Source: Desulfobacterales bacterium (GTDB taxonomy: Bacteria > Desulfobacterota > Desulfobacteria > Desulfobacterales > JAEINQ01). Taken from it: DNA of 64,000 bases. The notes under the pieces were generated by a model, which did not search any database, was not told where the DNA came from, and saw only the letters and a list, made by a program, of their open reading frames with translations. The translations under genes and the position numbers were made by a program. The stretch covers positions 7,841-71,840 of the forward strand of contig JAEINQ010000027.1 of the NCBI GenBank assembly GCA_016342285.1. The letters run 5' to 3'. This document shows, in pieces, positions 5,650 through 53,441 of this stretch (the first letter of the stretch is position 1; every line of letters begins with the position of its first letter).

Positions 5650-5797
5650 AACACCCCCTACCACACCTTTTTCTTGACAGTCCAGGCCCTCGTTCAGTAG
5701 TCAGCCAGGACCGGTTGACGTCTAATGACCGGAACCCTGGCCCGGAGAAACGGGCTTCCAAGCTGAAAAGACGACCCTGTATAGGTCTAAATCTAAA

Positions 5798-8788
<2,991 letters not shown>

Positions 8789-25337: not shown

Positions 25338-25490
25338 ATTTGCTGGCGCAAATCTATGAAGCGCGGCTTCGCCGCTATTTGATTCTCTATTTTGCCATTG
25401 AAGCGCCCGAACGCCGGGTTAACTGTTTTCAGGCCAGGGAGAAGTGATGATTGTCTATTTTCAGAAACCACCGAGAAGAAATGGTTTGAA

Positions 25491-25563
25491 ACCACACGAA
25501 GCACACAAAGAAGAAATGGTTTCTTCGATATTGTGGCCTTTGTGCCTTGGTGCCTTTGTGGTT
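25491..25563. repeat. Repeat family F hairpin (CACAAAG arms), copy F1
   Basis: accacacgaagcacacaaagaag...cctttgtgccttggtgcctttgtggt. Confidence 0.8.
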
Positions 25564-25598
25564 AATCCAAAGCATCAATTACCGCAAAGAGCCACATC

Positions 25599-40032: not shown

Positions 40033-40941
40033 ATGGAAACATACCCCCATCGATGCCGCCTGCTGGCCGATATCCTGCGCGGCTATCTGACTCAGGGCAT
40101 GCGGCTCACCCCCGAGACGGTACGATTCATTGATGCGACCGTTTCAGTGAAGGCCGCCGTCGACCTGTCCGTCCTTTTATTGGATCCGGATGACAGCGAG
40201 GCCGACTCGCTGCTGGAATTGATTTTCTACCCCGACCTCCCCATGCAAAAACGGATCGAAGATCTTCTGGTCGCACACCGCTTCACCCGGAAGGATCCGG
40301 CCATGGTGGTCCGCTCTCTTTCGGACCCGCCGATTTACGCCCGGTTGATATTTCCCGACAACCGGGGGGCGTTGACCCATCGACCCGCTCCGGCGGTTCT
40401 GGCCTCCATGGTGGACCGACTGCATATCTCCCGCATTATCGCCGAACCGATCCTTGCCGCCTGCCGGCGGTTTGCCCCGCAGACCGCCCTGAACATCCGC
40501 ATTCAAATCCGAAACGCCCACACAACCCCGGCAGAAAATGTGACCGGATTTATCGCCACATTTTTGGCCAACGCCGACCTGGATGCCGGCGAAATTCTCG
40601 ACTGCTTAAGGACGGCCCTGGAATTGACGGAGACCATTCCCGATGAAAACATATCCCTGGGTCTAATCCGTATCCAGCGCGACCTGGCCGAAGCCCTTGA
40701 CCGGGCCGACCGCTTGTCCCGGTCCGCATCAGGTCAAAACATGGAGACCCTGATGCTCAAAGGGGTACGCACCCCCCACATCAACAGGGCGGCCACGGAA
40801 GAAAGGATGCGCCGGATCGACCGGTTGTGCCGGTTCGGCTTCGACCGGGTTGATCATGACACCGGGGCAGCACGGGTGGAAGACCTGGGTTGCTTTGCCC
40901 CTGACCGCGACCTGACCGACCTGGTCCGTCGCCTCTCCTGA
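40033..40941 (+). CDS. Hypothetical protein (302 aa), translationally close-coupled to trxC
   Basis: Starts 4 nt after the trxC stop with coding-like codon usage. I recognise no motif. Confidence 0.6.
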   Translation: METYPHRCRLLADILRGYLTQGMRLTPETVRFIDATVSVKAAVDLSVLLLDPDDSEADSLLELIFYPDLPMQKRIEDLLVAHRFTRKDPAMVVRSLSDPPIYARLIFPDNRGALTHRPAPAVLASMVDRLHISRIIAEPILAACRRFAPQTALNIRIQIRNAHTTPAENVTGFIATFLANADLDAGEILDCLRTALELTETIPDENISLGLIRIQRDLAEALDRADRLSRSASGQNMETLMLKGVRTPHINRAATEERMRRIDRLCRFGFDRVDHDTGAARVEDLGCFAPDRDLTDLVRRLS

Positions 40942-40959
40942 TTGCGCCGGGAGCCGATA

Positions 40960-41040
40960 CCCCACCCACAGTGTGGACAGCCTCAGGTGCCATCCTGAAA
41001 GGGGTCATAATGCTCAATGTTCAAATCGGAATTCTGTATT
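40960..41040 (+). repeat. Family E/D repeat fragment after the hypothetical gene stop
   Basis: ccccacccacagtgtggacagcctcaggtgccatcctgaaaggggtcataatgctcaatgttcaaatcgg. Confidence 0.65.
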
Positions 41041-41228
41041 TTTCGTGATGTGCGCATATGGACGTTTCCAATTCATAAATGTGAATTTTTGTCCAAGATC
41101 AAGGAAATCAAGCCATTGCGCGGAGGCGTAGCCGGCTACGCCGCACAAGAAATGGCGCTGATTGACGTAGAGACTTGTCCGCCTCTGGCGGGTTGGGCAA
41201 AAAGGCCATTTATGGATGGAAGCCCCGC

Positions 41229-41336
41229 CTACCCCCCCAGAATCACGGTACCCAGGGAGACCATGACCACAATCATGACCATGACCGCAACGTCCAACGC
41301 ACCGTCCAGCAATCGATTCGGAGATATCTTTTCCAT
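41229..41336 (-). CDS. Candidate 35-aa single-TM peptide, coupled to the upstream zinc-ribbon ORF
   Basis: TAAGAATG junction. MEKISPNRLLDGALDVAVMVMIVVMVSLGTVILGG. Below the ORF-track size cutoff; no SD. Confidence 0.3.
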   Translation of the reverse strand: MEKISPNRLLDGALDVAVMVMIVVMVSLGTVILGG

Positions 41337-41338
41337 TC

Positions 41339-41503
41339 TTATCGCAGCTCGTCGATATGGATCCGTTGCCCACAGCAGGGGCAGCGGGTCACGTTGGCGC
41401 TCTGGGGCAGGTCGCCGGATCGAAACACGGCGATACAGTTGCTCGGGGTAAACCGATACTCCACCCATACCGAAAATCCGCAGGTACAAAACCGCTGTTG
41501 CAT
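41339..41503 (-). CDS. Small zinc-ribbon protein (54 aa)
   Basis: GGAGGAAGG SD, then ATG. MQQRFCTCGFSVWVEYRFTPSNCIAVFRSGDLPQSANVTRCPCCGQRIHIDELR (CxC...CxxC). Not in the ORF track (under 60 aa). Confidence 0.55.
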   Translation of the reverse strand: MQQRFCTCGFSVWVEYRFTPSNCIAVFRSGDLPQSANVTRCPCCGQRIHIDELR

Positions 41504-41537
41504 GGCCTTCCTCCATCTGTTTATAGATATTCGTTAT

Positions 41538-41555
41538 TGTTTATTTATATAAACA
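41538..41555. promoter_or_regulatory. Operator-like palindrome TGTTTAT-N4-ATAAACA upstream of the zinc-ribbon ORF
   Basis: Read directly, 35-52 nt upstream of the ATG at 41503. An extra half-site tataaaca lies nearby. Confidence 0.55.
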
Positions 41556-41706
41556 TTCACGGTAGTCGTTCTCACCGGGACGGTAGCGATAGCGGAACCT
41601 CTTCCGGTCCACCACTTGAAGTGGTGGTTTAATGCCAGAATTAAACGCCCCACGCCTGCACCCTTCTGTCCAGGTCCCAGGGCCTTCGGGCGTGGCTCTT
41701 ACCGTC

Positions 41707-42360
41707 TCACCTGAATTCCCGGCAGACCCAAACCACCTTTCCGATGATCCGAACGCTGTCCGTATGGTCACCATCAAGATAGATCGGGGCATAACGGGTA
41801 TTGTCGCTGAGAAGCACCAGTTTGTTGGGATGTTTCTCGATCCGCTTGACCATGATGGTATCGTCGATGCCCACGGCAAATACCGCGCCGGCCAGCACGT
41901 CCTTTTGAGACTGGTCCACCAGCACCGTATCACCGTCTTTGAGTTCCGGTTCCATGCTGTTGCCAAAGATATCCATGAGCACCATATGGTCGGCAACACC
42001 CTTTTGCTGCAGCCAGCTGGCCTCGAAAGCATAGTATCCCTCCACCCGGGAACCGACTTCAAAGGAGCCGCCGCCGGCACAGAGCCTTGCCCGAACCTTG
42101 GGCACGGTTTGGAAACCGGACTCCCCATCCCGACCGCCGCCCAGAAAAGGGGTGCCGTCCCCGGAGTCGAGCCAATCCGGATTGAGTCCGAACTGCCGAA
42201 ACAGCTGAAGTTTCCAGCGGTCCGGCACCCGGTCTTTTTTCCTGGCCTGGGTGATGGCCGAACGGTTGATGCCCAGGGCATCGGCCAGTTCATTCTGACT
42301 CGCAATCCCGGTGGCGTCGTGGATCCGCTTTAAAAACCCGTCAAATCGATGTTGGGCCAT
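41707..42360 (-). CDS. Phage-CI-type HTH repressor with an S24 (LexA-like) autopeptidase domain
   Basis: 217 aa. N-terminus IASQNELADALGINRSAITQARKKDRVPDRWKLQLFRQFGLNPDWL (CI-repressor-type HTH). Candidate Ala-Gly cleavage site LCAGGG. Catalytic Ser in GNSMEPEL and Lys in IMVKRIE. AGGAAGG SD. Confidence 0.85.
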   Translation of the reverse strand: MAQHRFDGFLKRIHDATGIASQNELADALGINRSAITQARKKDRVPDRWKLQLFRQFGLNPDWLDSGDGTPFLGGGRDGESGFQTVPKVRARLCAGGGSFEVGSRVEGYYAFEASWLQQKGVADHMVLMDIFGNSMEPELKDGDTVLVDQSQKDVLAGAVFAVGIDDTIMVKRIEKHPNKLVLLSDNTRYAPIYLDGDHTDSVRIIGKVVWVCREFR

Positions 42361-42439
42361 ATCGCCTTCCTCGCATGAAGCTTTCCGTATTTCTTGGGTT
42401 TCAAACCGCTTTTCAAGAGCGCATTGATGTTGTCAATGA

Positions 42440-42468
42440 ATAAACAACATTGTTTATATTTATAAACA
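42440..42468. promoter_or_regulatory. Two overlapping operator palindromes with the same TGTTTAT half-site in the divergent promoter region
   Basis: ATAAACA-acat-TGTTTAT and TGTTTATA-tt-TATAAACA. Confidence 0.55.
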
Positions 42469-42600
42469 GTTTTTTGCCTTGTCAACTATTTTTTTCAAGC
42501 CGGGCAGAAAACAGGTTTTGTTCTTGACAAAAAGAGAGGGGCGCTTTTAGACAGGATATACGGAAGAGACAAGTCAATCCACCCATGGAAGGAGCCCCAC

Positions 42601-42945
42601 ATGTATCGTCAACGGGTAATCGCTTCATGCCCCGCCTGCGGAGACGGCATACCGGCCTGTTGCCCTGCCACCTGCCATGGGATACATCTGCTGTTGAGCC
42701 TGGTCACCAAGGGGCTCTGGGTGGTGGTCTGGATGCTGCTGACAATCCGCTCGAGCCGTTGCCGATGCAGCCTCTGCGGTCGCCCCCTGTGGATCATAGC
42801 GAGTCGTACGGACACCCCGAGGCCGACCCTGGCCGCCCCGTGGATCGACCACCGGGCATGGCGCTGTCAGCGATCGCCACAAAACCGGTTCAGTGCATAC
42901 CTGGTGGAAAACGGCCTGGTCTATTACGCACCCACCCGCCAATAG
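42601..42945 (+). CDS. LITAF-like membrane-inserted zinc-ribbon protein (114 aa)
   Basis: GGAAGGAG SD. CPACG...HGIHLLLSLVTKGLWVVVWMLLTI (hydrophobic hairpin)...CSLCG. GC3-rich codons. The overlapping frame 42585..42983 looks non-coding. Confidence 0.6.
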   Translation: MYRQRVIASCPACGDGIPACCPATCHGIHLLLSLVTKGLWVVVWMLLTIRSSRCRCSLCGRPLWIIASRTDTPRPTLAAPWIDHRAWRCQRSPQNRFSAYLVENGLVYYAPTRQ

Positions 42946-42987
42946 GCCCCTCGCCTCCGACTTTAGGGCACTGGAAACATTAGATTT

Positions 42988-43069
42988 ACCACGAAGACAC
43001 AAAGTGCACAAAGAAGAAAACAACATTGTTTTAATCTCTTAACTTTGTGTCCTTTGTGCCTTTGCGGTT
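42988..43069. repeat. Family F hairpin, copy F2
   Basis: accacgaagacacaaagtgcacaaagaag...aactttgtgtcctttgtgcctttgcggt. The loop carries AAAACAACATTGTTTTA. Confidence 0.8.
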
Positions 43070-43243
43070 TCAAACAGCTTTAACAAGTACACAAAACCTC
43101 ATGATTCGGCAGACCCGTGTCCATCCCGATTGTACCTTGATGTCCCAGCGGCCAGATGGTATGAAAACGGCATCGAATACCGGCTGACCGCAGATCGCAA
43201 ATGACGATATCGAAACCCTTCCCAAGGATGATTCATCGACACC

Positions 43244-44641
43244 ATGAAGCCGCTGCAGCTCTATAATACCCTGACACGTACCAAGGAATCCTTCACGCCG
43301 ATCTTTAAAGACCGTGTGGGTCTGTACACCTGCGGACCGACGGTCTACAACTTCGCCCACATCGGCAACCTGCGGACCTATATCTTCGAGGACATTCTAA
43401 AACGGGTCTTGAGCTACAACGGATTTACCGTCCGCCATGTGATGAACATCACCGACGTGGGTCACCTGACCGGCGATCGGGACATGGGGGAAGACAAAAT
43501 GGAATCCGGCGCCCGGCGTGAAGGCCTCAGCGCCTGGGAAATCGCTGAATTCTACACCCAGGCGTTTCGCTCGGACATGGCCCGGCTCAACATCCTGGAG
43601 CCGGACATCTGGTGCAAGGCGACCGATACCATCGAGGACCAGATCGCCCTGGTCCGAACGCTGGAGGAAAAAGGATACACTTATCGCACGAGCGACGGCA
43701 TCTACTTTGACACCTCCCGATTCGCCGACTACGACAAGCTGTCCCGGCAAAACCGCGAGGCGCTCCAGGAAGGGGCGCGGGTCGAGAAGAACCTCCAAAA
43801 GCGCAATCCCACGGATTTCGCCCTGTGGAAATTCTCGCCCCAGGGCGTCCAGCGGCAGATGGAATGGGAATCTCCCTGGGGGGTCGGCTTTCCCGGGTGG
43901 CACATCGAGTGTTCGGCCATGAGCATGAAGTACCTCCAAGACCAGCTCGACATCCACTGCGGCGGTACCGACCACATCGACGTCCACCACACCAACGAAA
44001 TCGCCCAGTCCGAGGCAGCCACCGGAAAACGTTTCTTCAACTTCTGGATGCACGGTGAGTTTCTCAACATTGCCGGCGGCAAGAAGATGGCCAAGAGCGA
44101 TGACAACTTCCTGACCCTTGAAAACGCCTTTATCAAACAGGGTATCGATCCGCTGGCCTACCGCTACGCGGCGTTTCTGAGCCACTATCGCAAGCCCATG
44201 GAGTACAGTGACGAATCCATGACGGCGGCCACCAACGGCCTTCGCCACCTGCGCAATCAGGTCAGGCGGCTGGCGGAAGGCGGCCCCGTCGCCCTTGCCC
44301 CCGATCACGAATTCAAGATGCGGTTTCTGGAAGAAACAAATGACGATCTGAACATGCCCAGGGCCATGGCCGTCGTTCAGGAACTGATTCGGGCGGACCT
44401 GCCCGATGGGGTGAAACTGGCCACGGTCATGGAATTCGATCGGTCGGTGCTGGGTCTCGAACTGGACCGGCCGGTGGCCGAAGAAAACCTGCCCGACGCG
44501 ATCCGGGCCATGGGGCAACAGCGGCTCGAAGCCCGGGCTGACAAAGACTGGGCCAAGAGCGACCGCCTGCGGGATGAACTCCAGGCGCTGGGGTACACGG
44601 TTCAAGACGACAAGGACGGCATGAAGATTTTCAAAGAATAA
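43244..44641 (+). CDS. cysS: Cysteine--tRNA ligase
   Basis: 465 aa. HIGN (FAHIGNLRT) and KMAKS (KMSKS) class I signatures. Typical N-terminus MKPLQLYNTLTRTKESF. Confidence 0.95.
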   Translation: MKPLQLYNTLTRTKESFTPIFKDRVGLYTCGPTVYNFAHIGNLRTYIFEDILKRVLSYNGFTVRHVMNITDVGHLTGDRDMGEDKMESGARREGLSAWEIAEFYTQAFRSDMARLNILEPDIWCKATDTIEDQIALVRTLEEKGYTYRTSDGIYFDTSRFADYDKLSRQNREALQEGARVEKNLQKRNPTDFALWKFSPQGVQRQMEWESPWGVGFPGWHIECSAMSMKYLQDQLDIHCGGTDHIDVHHTNEIAQSEAATGKRFFNFWMHGEFLNIAGGKKMAKSDDNFLTLENAFIKQGIDPLAYRYAAFLSHYRKPMEYSDESMTAATNGLRHLRNQVRRLAEGGPVALAPDHEFKMRFLEETNDDLNMPRAMAVVQELIRADLPDGVKLATVMEFDRSVLGLELDRPVAEENLPDAIRAMGQQRLEARADKDWAKSDRLRDELQALGYTVQDDKDGMKIFKE

Positions 44642-53368: not shown

Positions 53369-53441
53369 TACCACAAAGACACAAAGTTAAGGCATTAAAT
53401 TCAAAGCGTTTATTCTTTGTGTTCTTTGTGCCTTCGTGGTT
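53369..53441. repeat. Family F hairpin, copy F3
   Basis: accacaaagacacaaag...ctttgtgttctttgtgccttcgtggt. Confidence 0.8.

Follow-up and report, generated by a model that had tools for sequence, protein, structure and literature searches.

A phage-derived S24 repressor and its predicted small-protein operon in the chromosomes of Desulfobacterales

We analyzed a 64-kb stretch of Desulfobacterales DNA (the window, meaning this stretch at its full length) and found in it a phage-derived, chromosomally encoded repressor that is conserved across the sulfate-reducing Desulfobacterales. In the best overall explanation, which we consider about 60% probable, the locus is a self-contained regulatory unit inherited chromosomally by this order, in which the repressor controls an operon of very small proteins and is probably released by DNA damage. 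Protein domains, catalytic residues, conservation and register of the operators, reality and linkage of the small genes, and absence of a prophage were computed directly. The features of the locus are as follows, with O_rep and O_small denoting the predicted operators of the repressor gene and the small-gene operon, respectively.

41229..41336, minus strand: ORF for a hydrophobic membrane peptide of 35 aa, joined to the zinc-ribbon gene by TAAGAATG
41339..41503, minus strand: ORF for a zinc-ribbon protein of 54 aa (MQQRFCxCG ... CPCCG..IxIDELR), first gene of the predicted repressed operon
41518..41524, no strand assigned: auxiliary half-site, ATAAACA on the minus strand, 13 nt downstream of O_small
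41538..41555, no strand assigned: O_small, TGTTTATTTATATAAACA, upstream of the small-gene operon
41556..41706, minus strand: spacer of ~150 nt separating O_small from the repressor stop codon, mostly an insertion relative to the closest relatives (clade alignment)
41707..42360, minus strand: ORF for the repressor of 217 aa, with an HTH (residues 8-72) and an S24 domain (residues 92-210)
42440-42446: extra half-site ATAAACA near O_rep
42451..42468, no strand assigned: O_rep, TGTTTATATTTATAAACA, overlapping the predicted -10 region of the repressor's own promoter
42480..42485, minus strand: candidate -35 of the repressor promoter, TTGACA, with an A-tract ahead of it and 11 nt between its end and the operator
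42524..42529, plus strand: candidate -35 of the 114-aa gene's own promoter, TTGACA, ~55 bp beyond the operator
42601..42945, plus strand: ORF for a Cys-rich protein of 114 aa, with CxxC, a hydrophobic stretch, and then CxCxxC

The repressor and its predicted operators

A Pfam search assigned the C-terminal part of the repressor to Peptidase_S24 (E = 5e-22) and its N-terminus to the Phage_CI_repr HTH (PF07022; E = 3e-9), and gave no match to the winged HTH LexA_DNA_bind. Against TIGR00498 the protein scored 54 bits (cut-off 110.95), with the alignment confined to residues 95-216. The CI-type N-terminus and this sub-cut-off score exclude a canonical LexA. The translation contains the motifs LCAGGG, GNSMEP, and MVKR, and the cleavage site Ala95-Gly96 and the catalytic residues Ser135 and Lys172 are invariant across 20 orthologues and align with Ala84-Gly85, Ser119, and Lys156 in the C-terminal domain of E. 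coli LexA. The initial annotation had described an intact repressor of the autocleavable type; with all self-cleavage residues retained, this description is borne out, and every sequence element that it had listed is present where it had been placed. The dN/dS values of the repressor gene range from 0.07 to 0.15. An exact-sequence look-up of the window's repressor returned no record.

The 18-bp palindrome TGTTTAT-N4-ATAAACA occurs in perfect form at 41538-41555 and 42451-42468. Allowing two mismatches revealed no further site in the window (0.05 expected by chance). Of the seven TGTTTAT heptamers across the 64 kb, six fall in the repressor locus. Likewise, an operator matrix (≥10 bits) detected only O_rep and O_small in the window, and only three weak extra matches in ~650 kb of related loci.

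Conservation at orthologous loci supports both palindromes as predicted operators shared by the two promoter regions, as had initially been proposed. In 66 of 83 orthologous loci, the operator at the position of O_rep matches at 12 or more of 14 positions, and L083, L084, and L001, which are close relatives, carry it in identical form. Upstream of it, 50 of 76 loci have a TTGCA(A/T) or TTGACA hexamer whose end is 14 nt from the operator; in a further 17 loci this distance is 11-13 nt. For the small-gene promoter, 51 of 70 orthologous loci have a TTGYCN hexamer resembling a -35 whose end is exactly 4 nt from the operator, and the candidate -10 is the promoter-proximal half-site of O_small (TAAACA on the minus strand), which reads TAAAC(A/T) in 50 of these 70. 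The auxiliary half-site, (A/T)TAAAC, begins 13 nt past the operator in 37 of the 70. A predicted palindromic operator is present, then, both in the repressor's own promoter and at the adjacent, putatively regulated unit, each in fixed register with candidate -35 and -10 elements. The palindrome had also been thought to wire three genes together. This part is not supported: the site at 42451-42468 is the predicted autoregulatory operator of the repressor itself and is found at orthologous loci whatever the divergent neighbor.

At most orthologous loci O_small begins 16 nt past the repressor stop codon. In the window, the insertion in the spacer displaces the T-run and TTGCCN -35 usual for the small-gene promoter, and a perfect hairpin, CCACCACTTGAAGTGGTGG, lies at 41610-41628 within the spacer. 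A generic sigma-70 scan found a consensus promoter nowhere in the region, so that our promoter assignments, including the candidate -35 hexamer of the repressor gene, are based on cross-locus conservation. Rfam contained no RNA family matching 40900-43400.

We also considered a third operator near cysS, where the 14-mer AAACAACATTGTTT at 43018-43031 is identical to 42442-42455, and rejected it: the half-sites are oppositely arranged, and the site remains below 10 bits with the operator matrix. It sits in the loop of a palindromic repeat element of ~80 bp that is missing from L083, L084, and L001; sister copies of this element lie near 25490-25565 and 53370-53440.

The small-protein genes and the divergent neighbor

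The first gene of the predicted operon encodes the 54-aa zinc ribbon (Cys pattern CxC...CxCC), with GGAGG located 8 nt upstream. Its dN/dS of 0.05-0.20 indicates strong purifying selection and confirms as a real gene what had been noted as a zinc-ribbon ORF with a strong Shine-Dalgarno sequence. The family comprises 145 representatives at 50% identity. At every examined locus that has one, distant members included, the zinc ribbon lies directly downstream of the repressor; members found at E ~1e-5 still follow a CI-HTH/S24 repressor that is 55% identical, with the same operator. Nearly all loci carrying the gene place its start codon 33-35 nt from the operator. Among 83 loci, the gene is intact in ~22 and decayed in ~17. 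An AlphaFold2 model of the protein (pLDDT 83) contains three strands; it found no match better than E = 3 in the PDB (Foldseek), and a comparison with the DksA/TraR zinc-finger family yielded none either.

The zinc-ribbon gene and the following gene for the 35-aa membrane peptide are apparently translationally coupled through their junction. The window's peptide is a diverged member of an order-wide 31-aa family, MFDRIIDGILDCIFMVMILILSILGTLVVGL, whose members (31-35 aa) have a C-terminal hydrophobic helix and are encoded downstream of the conserved predicted operator. At least 53 loci carry the peptide, and the ORF was also predicted by gene callers in L001, L083, and L084. In the close clade its dN/dS is noisy (0.2-1.3, near 1 in some close pairs); despite this, the pattern D-G-x-L-D...S-L-G-T is retained. 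What had been listed as a 35-aa ORF with a single transmembrane segment accordingly belongs to a membrane peptide family conserved across the order. An optional third member of the operon, a protein of ~57 aa that we refer to as the YEYHGNT protein, is encoded at 58 loci, is present in most relatives, and is absent from the window. Searches of Pfam, NCBIfam, and PADLOC produced no above-threshold match for any of the small proteins; as they match no known family or fold, the roles proposed for them below are drawn from analogy. These mini-protein families are often missed by gene callers, and at one related locus (L002) the annotation chose the wrong frame.

On the other side of the repressor lies the divergent 114-aa gene, which the initial annotation had counted as a LITAF-like member of the module. 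Its product has the pattern C10-xx-C13, hydrophobic residues 29-49, and C54-x-C56-xx-C59, conserved in four relatives. Pfam gave no match to LITAF (PF10601) at E up to 0.1 and only weak sub-threshold matches to other families, e.g., DUF7190 (17.6 bits, cut-off 27). The AlphaFold2 model places helices at residues 25-36 and 40-51, with a pLDDT of 45 that is too low for a structure search. The likeness to LITAF is one of topology only, i.e., of a predicted hydrophobic hairpin. Databases contain just three relatives of the gene, each at a syntenic locus of a close relative, and its dN/dS is 0.32-0.49. The window, L083, and L084 share a conserved block, CTTGACAA..GCT(T/C)TTAGA, of which L001 retains part; the TTGACA at 42524 is a candidate -35 of the gene, suggested by conservation, with no consensus match in the generic scan. 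Because of this conserved TTGACA of its own beyond the operator, and of its occurrence in a narrow clade, the gene is probably not wired into the module and is best regarded as a clade-specific divergent neighbor outside of it.

DNA damage, chromosomal residence, and alternative readings

The link to DNA damage that had been suggested from the window gains indirect support from related loci, where dinB or umuD(C) adjoins the repressor in four lineages. In L021 and L022, dinB is divergent from the repressor and both genes have an operator in common, with a TTGATA-N17-TAAACA promoter readable on the opposite strand. L007 and L013 carry a dinB-nfo pair upstream of the repressor, umuDC is adjacent to it in L067, and umuD in L035. 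In L007 and L013 the region upstream of dinB showed no operator, nor was one detected close to umuD in L067; the association with translesion polymerase genes may therefore be positional rather than regulatory. A tblastn search with E. coli RecA and LexA detected neither recA nor a canonical lexA in the window or the related loci. As the ~650 kb of related loci do not include the promoters of recA, uvrA, and other core SOS genes, the three weak extra operator matches found there make for a test of the regulon that is weak in both directions.

These neighbors raise the prospect of a wider role, in which the repressor is a non-canonical LexA and master SOS regulator with a genome-wide repair and mutagenesis regulon, and the small-gene operon is only its nearest target, a checkpoint gene. 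A CI-type S24 protein would then have replaced or supplemented canonical LexA as the damage master regulator of Desulfobacterales, and the 31-aa peptide, the zinc ribbon, and the YEYHGNT protein would form a previously unknown checkpoint acting by division or membrane arrest. The order-wide chromosomal distribution of the repressor, its invariant S24 machinery, the common operator with dinB in L021 and L022, and umuD(C) beside it in two other lineages are consistent with this, as is the precedent in Bacteroidetes (PMC8565304). However, only two local operators occur in the 64 kb, the extra matches in related loci are few and weak, dinB of L007 and L013 lacks the operator, and many related groups of deltaproteobacteria possess canonical LexA, which is widespread there (PMC8565304), so that we consider this wider role rather unlikely. 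If true, it would be the third case of a phage repressor independently rebuilding an SOS network, seen partway, while dinB and umuDC are being drawn in beside the regulator.

Relatives of the repressor are encoded in 194 species-representative genomes. The best 80 of these 194 show 63-72% identity and are nearly all labeled Desulfobacterales; their loci have neighbors that vary between lineages and a host-like base composition. Carriers of the module include MAGs related to cultured species, namely L039 and L057 (Desulfosudis oleivorans) and L050 (Desulfocicer vacuolatum). The identity among the best 80 of the 194 species, together with the host-like composition, argues for long vertical residence. 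In the window, the repressor is flanked by housekeeping genes, its neighbors being a histidine kinase with a sigma-54 response regulator, thioredoxin 2, CysS, a SPOR/TPR protein, and PBP1. No integrase, capsid, terminase, or transposase domain was found within ~10 kb of it, and no integrase, structural, or lysis gene was seen at those related loci whose neighbors were examined. IMG/VR (2.9 million viral contigs) contained no close relatives of the repressor. Its identity to sequenced phage repressors is at most 38%, with the repressor of Desulfovibrio phage ProddE (38%) and the c repressors of Mu-like Pseudomonas phages (30%) as the nearest characterized relatives, and the repressor region of ProddE has no zinc-ribbon or peptide genes alongside. 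JGI annotates relatives of the window's repressor as 'phage repressor protein C'. The initial view of a stand-alone module rather than a prophage is upheld by the lack of phage genes nearby and the empty IMG/VR search.

Small membrane proteins are common as phage exclusion factors. Together with the phage repressors as nearest characterized relatives and the different genomic neighborhoods across lineages, this would fit a relic of a prophage immunity region or a mobile cassette, with the small proteins providing superinfection exclusion or an abortive-infection-type defense and with a phage anti-repressor or another phage cue, not host DNA damage, as the trigger. This reading is very unlikely in light of the missing phage genes in the window and the examined relatives, the missing viral relatives, and the signs of long residence given above. 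Furthermore, the position of the operator suggests that the small genes are repressed by the repressor, unlike exclusion genes linked to immunity, which are usually co-expressed with it. The earlier idea of an abortive-infection-like role found no backing in PADLOC, which returned no significant matches and only two HTH matches at chance level (E ~0.03).

Least probable of all is a toxin-antitoxin-like or autoregulatory pair with the zinc ribbon as co-repressor or anti-repressor and the membrane peptide as a stress-released toxin: the position of the zinc ribbon directly behind the repressor wherever found, distant members included, the apparent translational coupling, and the co-repressor precedent of UmuDAb-DdrR (PMC11332147) speak for it, but neither an antisense RNA nor a known toxin family was detected, and most lineages have a decayed zinc-ribbon gene or none, with the repressor and both operators unchanged, so the zinc ribbon cannot be needed for repression.

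Proposed mechanism and comparison with known systems

For the preferred reading, a self-contained repressor unit, we infer DNA binding, repression, a RecA trigger, and all effector functions as follows. A dimer of the repressor would bind the 18-bp operator tGTTTAt-N4-aTAAACa at two places. At O_rep, which covers the predicted -10 region of its own promoter, it would regulate its own synthesis; at O_small, located between the candidate -35 and -10 of the promoter immediately downstream of the repressor gene, it would repress the payload, i.e., the 54-aa zinc ribbon and the coupled 35-aa membrane peptide that this promoter is predicted to drive. The most likely trigger would be DNA damage, with RecA on single-stranded DNA stimulating self-cleavage at Ala95-Gly96 by Ser135/Lys172. 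Cleavage would part the HTH from the dimerization domain and derepress both promoters. The membrane peptide, which of the payload genes occurs at the most loci, may then act as a small membrane effector that blocks cell division like SidA, YneA, and SosA, or may alternatively depolarize the membrane like TisB and DinQ. The zinc-ribbon protein, lost from many lineages, could have an accessory role as an effector in the cytoplasm.

Desulfobacterales contribute greatly to the cycling of carbon and sulfur in the sea, and how they respond to DNA damage is essentially unstudied. With a conserved regulator, an 18-bp predicted operator, and three unannotated mini-protein families, the locus offers a testable entry point. 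For so short a sequence, the 31-aa peptide shows striking conservation. It is a promising candidate for a new checkpoint or toxin protein of the small membrane type.

The initial annotation had named no described system with this exact gene set. We found close functional analogues in FddR, the non-canonical LexA of Bacteroidetes, PrtR-PtrB, and LexA-SidA. The genes for YneA and SosA sit beside lexA, and TisB (29 aa) and DinQ (27 aa) are SOS-induced membrane toxins. SidA is a 29-aa SOS-induced inhibitor of division in the inner membrane (PMC4211646), and small membrane-bound checkpoint inhibitors are common (PMC6051672), as exemplified by SosA (PMC6851548). Shared with all of these is a very small, single-pass membrane protein under the predicted operator of an S24 repressor. 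They differ in that no sequence similarity to the 35-aa peptide was detected and in that the regulator here is not a canonical LexA; no type I antisense RNA is evident at our locus.

On the side of the payload, PtrB is a small zinc-finger protein encoded beside prtR together with a second small ORF. In Pseudomonas aeruginosa, PrtR, a CI-like repressor encoded on the chromosome, undergoes cleavage once RecA is activated and keeps small regulatory genes next to it repressed (PMC6429228). Its targets ptrB and prtN feed into pyocin production and type III secretion, whereas pyocin or tailocin genes are absent here. UmuDAb-DdrR of Acinetobacter likewise pairs a non-LexA S24 repressor with a small lineage-specific partner encoded alongside (PMC11332147); there, DdrR is a co-repressor required for repression, whereas the zinc-ribbon gene at our loci was lost repeatedly with the operators persisting.

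In Bacteroidetes, CI-type S24 proteins act as LexA, which was reported as exclusive to that group (PMC8565304). Similarities to our repressor include the CI-type HTH with an S24 domain (the COG2932 type), the chromosomal location, and autoregulation through palindromes with a fixed spacer, the last being predicted here. The Bacteroidetes proteins control a full SOS regulon (recA, recN, umuDC, dinB, and others) via GGA-N5-TCC or CTAA-N5-TTAG, whereas only local targets were found for ours.

A close parallel by description is FddR of Francisella, a chromosomal S24 repressor of lambdoid CI phage origin that occurs lineage-wide, binds a palindrome within its promoter, and controls its own gene, a neighboring gene whose function is unknown, and in some genomes a divergent dinB (PMC13148647). 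Phage origin, lineage-wide occurrence, and a small self-contained regulon (here predicted) recur at our locus, as does dinB under the operator in L021 and L022. Differences concern the phylum, the operator (GTG-N11-CAC in FddR, tGTTTAt-N4-aTAAACa here), the arrangement of the target, which is divergent for FddR and a tandem downstream operon with a second operator here, and the payload, which here is a set of two or three orphan mini-proteins, one of them a membrane peptide.

With its CI-HTH, S24 domain, intact cleavage residues, chromosomal location, and conservation in the lineage, the repressor appears to fit among the co-opted phage-type chromosomal regulators FddR, Bacteroidetes LexA, PrtR, and HdiR. 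The locus is a new example of a recently recognized kind of system, not a new kind. It adds a third or fourth lineage to the damage units built on domesticated CI-type S24 proteins, and larger SOS networks may grow from such self-contained units (PMC13148647, PMC8565304).

Repressor and operators

The module and its divergent neighbour have the following features. Related loci fetched for comparison carry L numbers, with L083, L084 and L001 being the closest relatives of the window.

Features of the module and the divergent gene
42601..42945, plus strand: 114-aa ORF with CxxC, a hydrophobic stretch and CxCxxC
42451-42468: palindrome upstream of the repressor gene
41707..42360, minus strand: repressor, 217 aa, with Pfam matches to Peptidase_S24 and PF07022
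41538-41555: palindrome upstream of the small genes
41518-41524: auxiliary half-site, TGTTTAT in the window
41339..41503, minus strand: Cys-rich zinc-ribbon ORF, 54 aa, GGAGG 8 nt before the ATG
41229..41336, minus strand: hydrophobic membrane ORF, 35 aa, joined to the 54-aa ORF via the junction TAAGAATG

The initial annotation had described an intact repressor of the autocleavable type, and Pfam domains, sequence motifs and alignment to LexA all agree with this. Peptidase_S24 matched residues 92-210 (E 5e-22) and the phage CI repressor HTH (PF07022) residues 8-72 (E 3e-9). The motifs LCAGGG, GNSMEP and MVKR are all present in the translation, and Ala95-Gly96, Ser135 and Lys172 align with Ala84-Gly85, Ser119 and Lys156 in solved structures of E. 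coli LexA. The 20 relatives compared show no variation at the cleavage site, at the catalytic Ser and Lys, or in the HTH segment NRSAITQAR, and the repressor gene shows a dN/dS of 0.07-0.15 in the window's close clade. TIGR00498 scored 54 bits (cut-off 111) and aligned to the S24 half only; on its sequence, the repressor is not a canonical LexA.

Both palindromes are perfect copies of TGTTTAT-N4-ATAAACA, which has no further occurrence in the 64 kb even when two mismatches are allowed (0.05 expected), and the module locus contains six of the window's seven TGTTTAT heptamers. We surveyed 83 loci for these sites: that of the window, 80 from genomes, and two from metagenomes or genomes. The best palindrome match retained at least 12 of the 14 specified bases in 66/83 loci upstream and in 53/81 loci downstream of the repressor, so that the shared palindromes noted earlier in both promoter regions are conserved at orthologous loci. 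Upstream, a TTGCA(A/T) or TTGACA −35-like hexamer follows an A-tract and ends 14 nt (50 of 76 loci) or 11-13 nt (17 more, the window included) before the operator, which places the AT-rich operator centre at the expected −10 position. Downstream, a T-run follows the repressor stop codon in most loci, a TTGYCN hexamer ends exactly 4 nt before the operator (51/70 loci), and the far half-site reads TAAAC(A/T) (50/70); the two elements are separated by a 16-nt spacer, with a −10-like hexamer inside the operator. In 37 of 70 loci, a further (A/T)TAAAC half-site, the counterpart of the auxiliary half-site in the window, starts 13 nt past the downstream operator. A generic sigma-70 scan of the module region returned no consensus promoter. 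The conserved operators in a fixed promoter register suggest that the upstream site is autoregulatory and that the downstream site controls the small genes; judged by this geometry, the repressor would bind and repress at both. We assign this regulatory architecture a probability of about 85%.

Compared with its closest relatives, the window contains an insertion of ~150 nt (41556-41706) that separates the small-gene operator from the repressor stop codon and includes a perfect hairpin (CCACCACTTGAAGTGGTGG, 41610-41628). A different insertion occupies this position in L084; in L083 and L001 there is next to no inserted sequence. As the insertion displaces the T-run and the TTGCCN −35 typical of most relatives, the small-gene promoter in the window may be weaker or partly reliant on read-through.

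A position weight matrix built from the surveyed sites (core GTTTA-N6-TAAAC, threshold 10 bits) recovered nothing in the window beyond the two operators, and ~650 kb of related loci added just three weak hits. These numbers bear on the possibility that the repressor is a master SOS regulator, for which the non-canonical LexA of Bacteroidetes sets a precedent (PMC8565304): all that the scanned sequence offers such a regulator are local operator sites.

Distribution and genomic context

A protein search yielded 1,724 repressor relatives at E ≤ 1e-10. Among the matches listed, full-length identity to the repressor was 66-79%, with one match at 97%, and the named organisms were Desulfobacterales, Thermodesulfobacteriota or similar. 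In a scan of one genome per GTDB species, 194 genomes encoded a relative; the best 80 of these showed 63-72% identity and were nearly all Desulfobacterales, including MAGs assigned to Desulfosudis oleivorans, Desulfocicer vacuolatum, Candidatus Desulfatibia and Desulfosarcina, as well as an Olavius symbiont. The complete Desulfobacterales genomes CP070789.1, CP070768.1 and OY762721.1 are among the carriers of the module. Gene neighbourhoods around the repressor vary from lineage to lineage. The top match among sequenced phages was the repressor of Desulfovibrio phage ProddE (38% identity), followed by c repressors of Mu-like Pseudomonas phages (30%), and a search of 2.9 million viral contigs yielded no relative. 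The resulting picture is that of a repressor with phage ancestry, long resident in the chromosome. The module may also be read as a phage-immunity relic or a defence cassette, but none of the loci examined had phage genes beside the repressor, viral relatives were not found, conservation is order-wide, and PADLOC gave no significant match.

The genes flanking the module are ordinary, i.e., a PAS histidine kinase, a sigma-54 response regulator, thioredoxin 2 and a 302-aa protein, with CysS, an SPOR/TPR protein, PBP1A and CoaE farther away. The 64-kb window harbors neither tRNA genes nor a marked compositional island. The earlier description of the locus as not an obvious prophage therefore holds, given these flanks and the lack of phage genes beside the repressor.

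Several further elements were observed around the module. The 302-aa protein (40033-40941, plus strand), located between thioredoxin 2 and the small-gene operon, has no Pfam or NCBIfam match and occupies the same position in L001, L083 and L084. In one sub-clade, a Cys-rich protein of ~206 aa ending in ...LFDDLEKYF.AAGYSSPLMYL.NSPGLLR is encoded just upstream of the repressor on the same strand (L011 3208-3828; equivalents in L015, L017, L028, L037, L038, L040 and L051), again with no Pfam match. An interspersed palindromic repeat with a variable loop occurs at 42988-43068, about 25490-25565 and about 53370-53440, its arms being ACCAC(G/A)AAGACACAAAG(T/G)(G/A)CACAAAG and CTTTGTG..CTTTGTGCCTT.G.GGTT. 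It resembles a REP- or MITE-like element, Rfam gave only a chance-level miRNA hit, and the copy between the 114-aa gene and cysS is missing from L083, L084 and L001. The loop of this copy holds a 14-mer, AAACAACATTGTTT (43018-43031), identical to 42442-42455 beside the repressor operator; its half-sites are arranged opposite to those of the operator, the 43018 copy is window-specific, and the identity may reflect chance or local sequence transfer. Upstream of cysS (43244), the window, L083 and L084 share most of a block at 43120-43175 (CCCGATTG.ACCTTGATGTCCC...CAGATGGTATGAAAA), and L001 shares part of it. The block is a possible conserved leader or promoter element, and Rfam returned nothing for it.

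Small genes and the divergent gene

Downstream of the repressor, the 54-aa ORF with a strong SD and the coupled 35-aa ORF reported initially were both recovered, and the two appear to be coupled in translation. The zinc ribbon follows the pattern MQQRFCxCG ... CPxCG..L.I..LR, and its start codon lies a constant 33-35 nt past the downstream operator. About 22 of the 83 loci have an intact gene preceded by a strong ribosome-binding site, about 17 have a decayed one (frameshifts, cysteine loss, or truncation to 5-20 codons), and the remainder have none. Its dN/dS in the window's close clade (0.05-0.20) is as low as that of the repressor. With a profile, 145 members were retrieved from 1.84 billion representative proteins, almost all of them stand-alone and 51-60 aa long. 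Two of the most distant members (E about 1e-5) are encoded immediately downstream of a CI-HTH/S24 repressor; one of these repressors is 55% identical to that of the window and keeps the TGTTTAT-N4-ATAAACA operator. The AlphaFold2 model is three-stranded and zinc-ribbon-like (pLDDT 83), with no meaningful neighbour in the PDB. Decayed remnants, placed 33-35 nt past the downstream operator and, where cut to 5-20 codons, still starting with MQQ(R/H)F, were seen in L003, L006, L007, L009, L012, L014, L016, L045 and others; they mark repeated independent gene loss, or possibly conversion to a short leader ORF. This repeated loss, with the operators unchanged, speaks against the zinc ribbon being a co-repressor and against a toxin-antitoxin-like pair of small genes; many lineages do without the zinc ribbon, which makes a role as a required co-repressor unlikely.

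The second family, the YEYHGNT protein (53-63 aa, motif YEYHGNT...RDWILFDSVEEAQ.FF), is missing from the window and its closest relatives. Its gene is present in 58 of the 83 loci (seen across L003-L082, e.g., L007 4813-5004), always downstream on the repressor strand, between the operator and the membrane-peptide gene. The third family, a membrane peptide of ~31 aa (consensus MFDRIIDGILDCIFMVMILILSILGTLVVGL), was recognised in at least 53 loci and is the payload gene with the widest presence. The 35-aa peptide of the window (MEKISPNRLLDGALDVAVMVMIVVMVSLGTVILGG) is a diverged member that retains the pattern D-G-x-L-D ... S-L-G-T. Over only 31-35 codons its dN/dS in the close clade is noisy (0.2-1.3). 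The low zinc-ribbon dN/dS and the spread of the peptide family indicate conservation of both ORFs. Where no member of the three families is recognised, the first ORF downstream may nonetheless encode a small membrane protein (L019, L065). None of the small payload proteins matched Pfam, NCBIfam or PADLOC.

These mini-genes are systematically under-annotated. In the complete genome CP070789.1 (L002), a 55-aa zinc-ribbon ORF (5723-5890) and a 32-aa membrane peptide (6086-6184) are omitted from the called genes, the only small gene called being the 59-aa YEYHGNT gene (5904-6083), which lies in a long frame (5751-6083) overlapping the zinc-ribbon ORF.

The divergent 114-aa ORF was found with the cysteine and hydrophobic pattern described initially. 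A set of 5.8 billion clustered proteins contained only three relatives of it, and those with readable flanks come from close relatives whose loci show full synteny (L083, L084 and the short contig L085); L001 has a more diverged copy. With a dN/dS of 0.32-0.49, conserved cysteines and a conserved C-terminal motif (NRF..LVE.GLVYYAPTR), it looks like a real gene. A clade-conserved block, CTTGACAA...GCTTTTAGA, starts 55 bp beyond the operator and is the obvious candidate for its own promoter. The −35-like TTGTCA by which a plus-strand promoter would lie over the operator is not conserved in the clade. The likeness to LITAF is one of topology only, because the LITAF profile gave no match and the structure model has low confidence (pLDDT 45). 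Other lineages have entirely different genes in the position divergent from the repressor. On these grounds, the 114-aa gene, which the initial annotation had counted as part of the module, is probably a bystander.

DNA damage and comparison with known systems

Translesion-synthesis or repair genes adjoin the repressor in four lineages. The first is represented by L021 and L022, in which dinB is divergent, its ATG 95 bp from that of the repressor, and a single operator in the shared intergenic region covers a plausible dinB promoter (TTGATA-N17-TAAACA on the dinB strand). In L007 and L013, a dinB-nfo pair (endonuclease IV family) lies upstream of the repressor on the same strand and has no operator of its own. 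Furthermore, umuD-umuC is divergent from the repressor in L067 and a umuD-like gene in L035. A bacterial genome holds only a handful of such genes among thousands, so four independent adjacencies in about 75 loci lie far above chance by a rough estimate, made with no formal test. We regard DNA damage as the probable trigger of the module, with less confidence than in the case of its architecture.

In undamaged cells, repressor dimers would occupy both operators and hold down the repressor's own promoter and that of the small genes. Upon DNA damage, activated RecA would stimulate self-cleavage at Ala95-Gly96, both promoters would open, and the zinc-ribbon protein and the membrane peptide would be made, apparently by coupled translation. 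By analogy with SOS small membrane proteins, the membrane peptide would be the best candidate effector. Such proteins include the SOS-induced membrane toxins TisB and DinQ. The division inhibitor SidA, an SOS-induced protein of 29 aa in the inner membrane, acts on FtsW (PMC4211646), SosA is a further small membrane checkpoint inhibitor (PMC6851548), and checkpoint inhibitors that are small and membrane-bound are generally common (PMC6051672). That the peptide likewise acts in division or membrane arrest is a tentative idea, and a rather doubtful one.

The initial interpretation was thus right in outline, apart from its inclusion of the 114-aa gene and its supposition that comparable systems are lacking. 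A literature search found no description of this repressor family, but analogues exist. Francisella FddR, a co-opted phage S24 repressor, controls its own gene and a neighbouring one of unknown function; in some species this control extends to a divergent dinB (PMC13148647). The repressor described here resembles FddR, as far as can be read from sequence, in having an operator at its own promoter, an adjacent target and, in some loci, a divergent dinB. The module belongs with the domesticated CI-type S24 regulators of Bacteroidetes and Francisella and with PrtR of Pseudomonas; new are the Desulfobacterales lineage, the operator sequence, the layout of two operators in tandem, and three mini-protein families that lack annotation, among them a strikingly conserved 31-aa membrane peptide.
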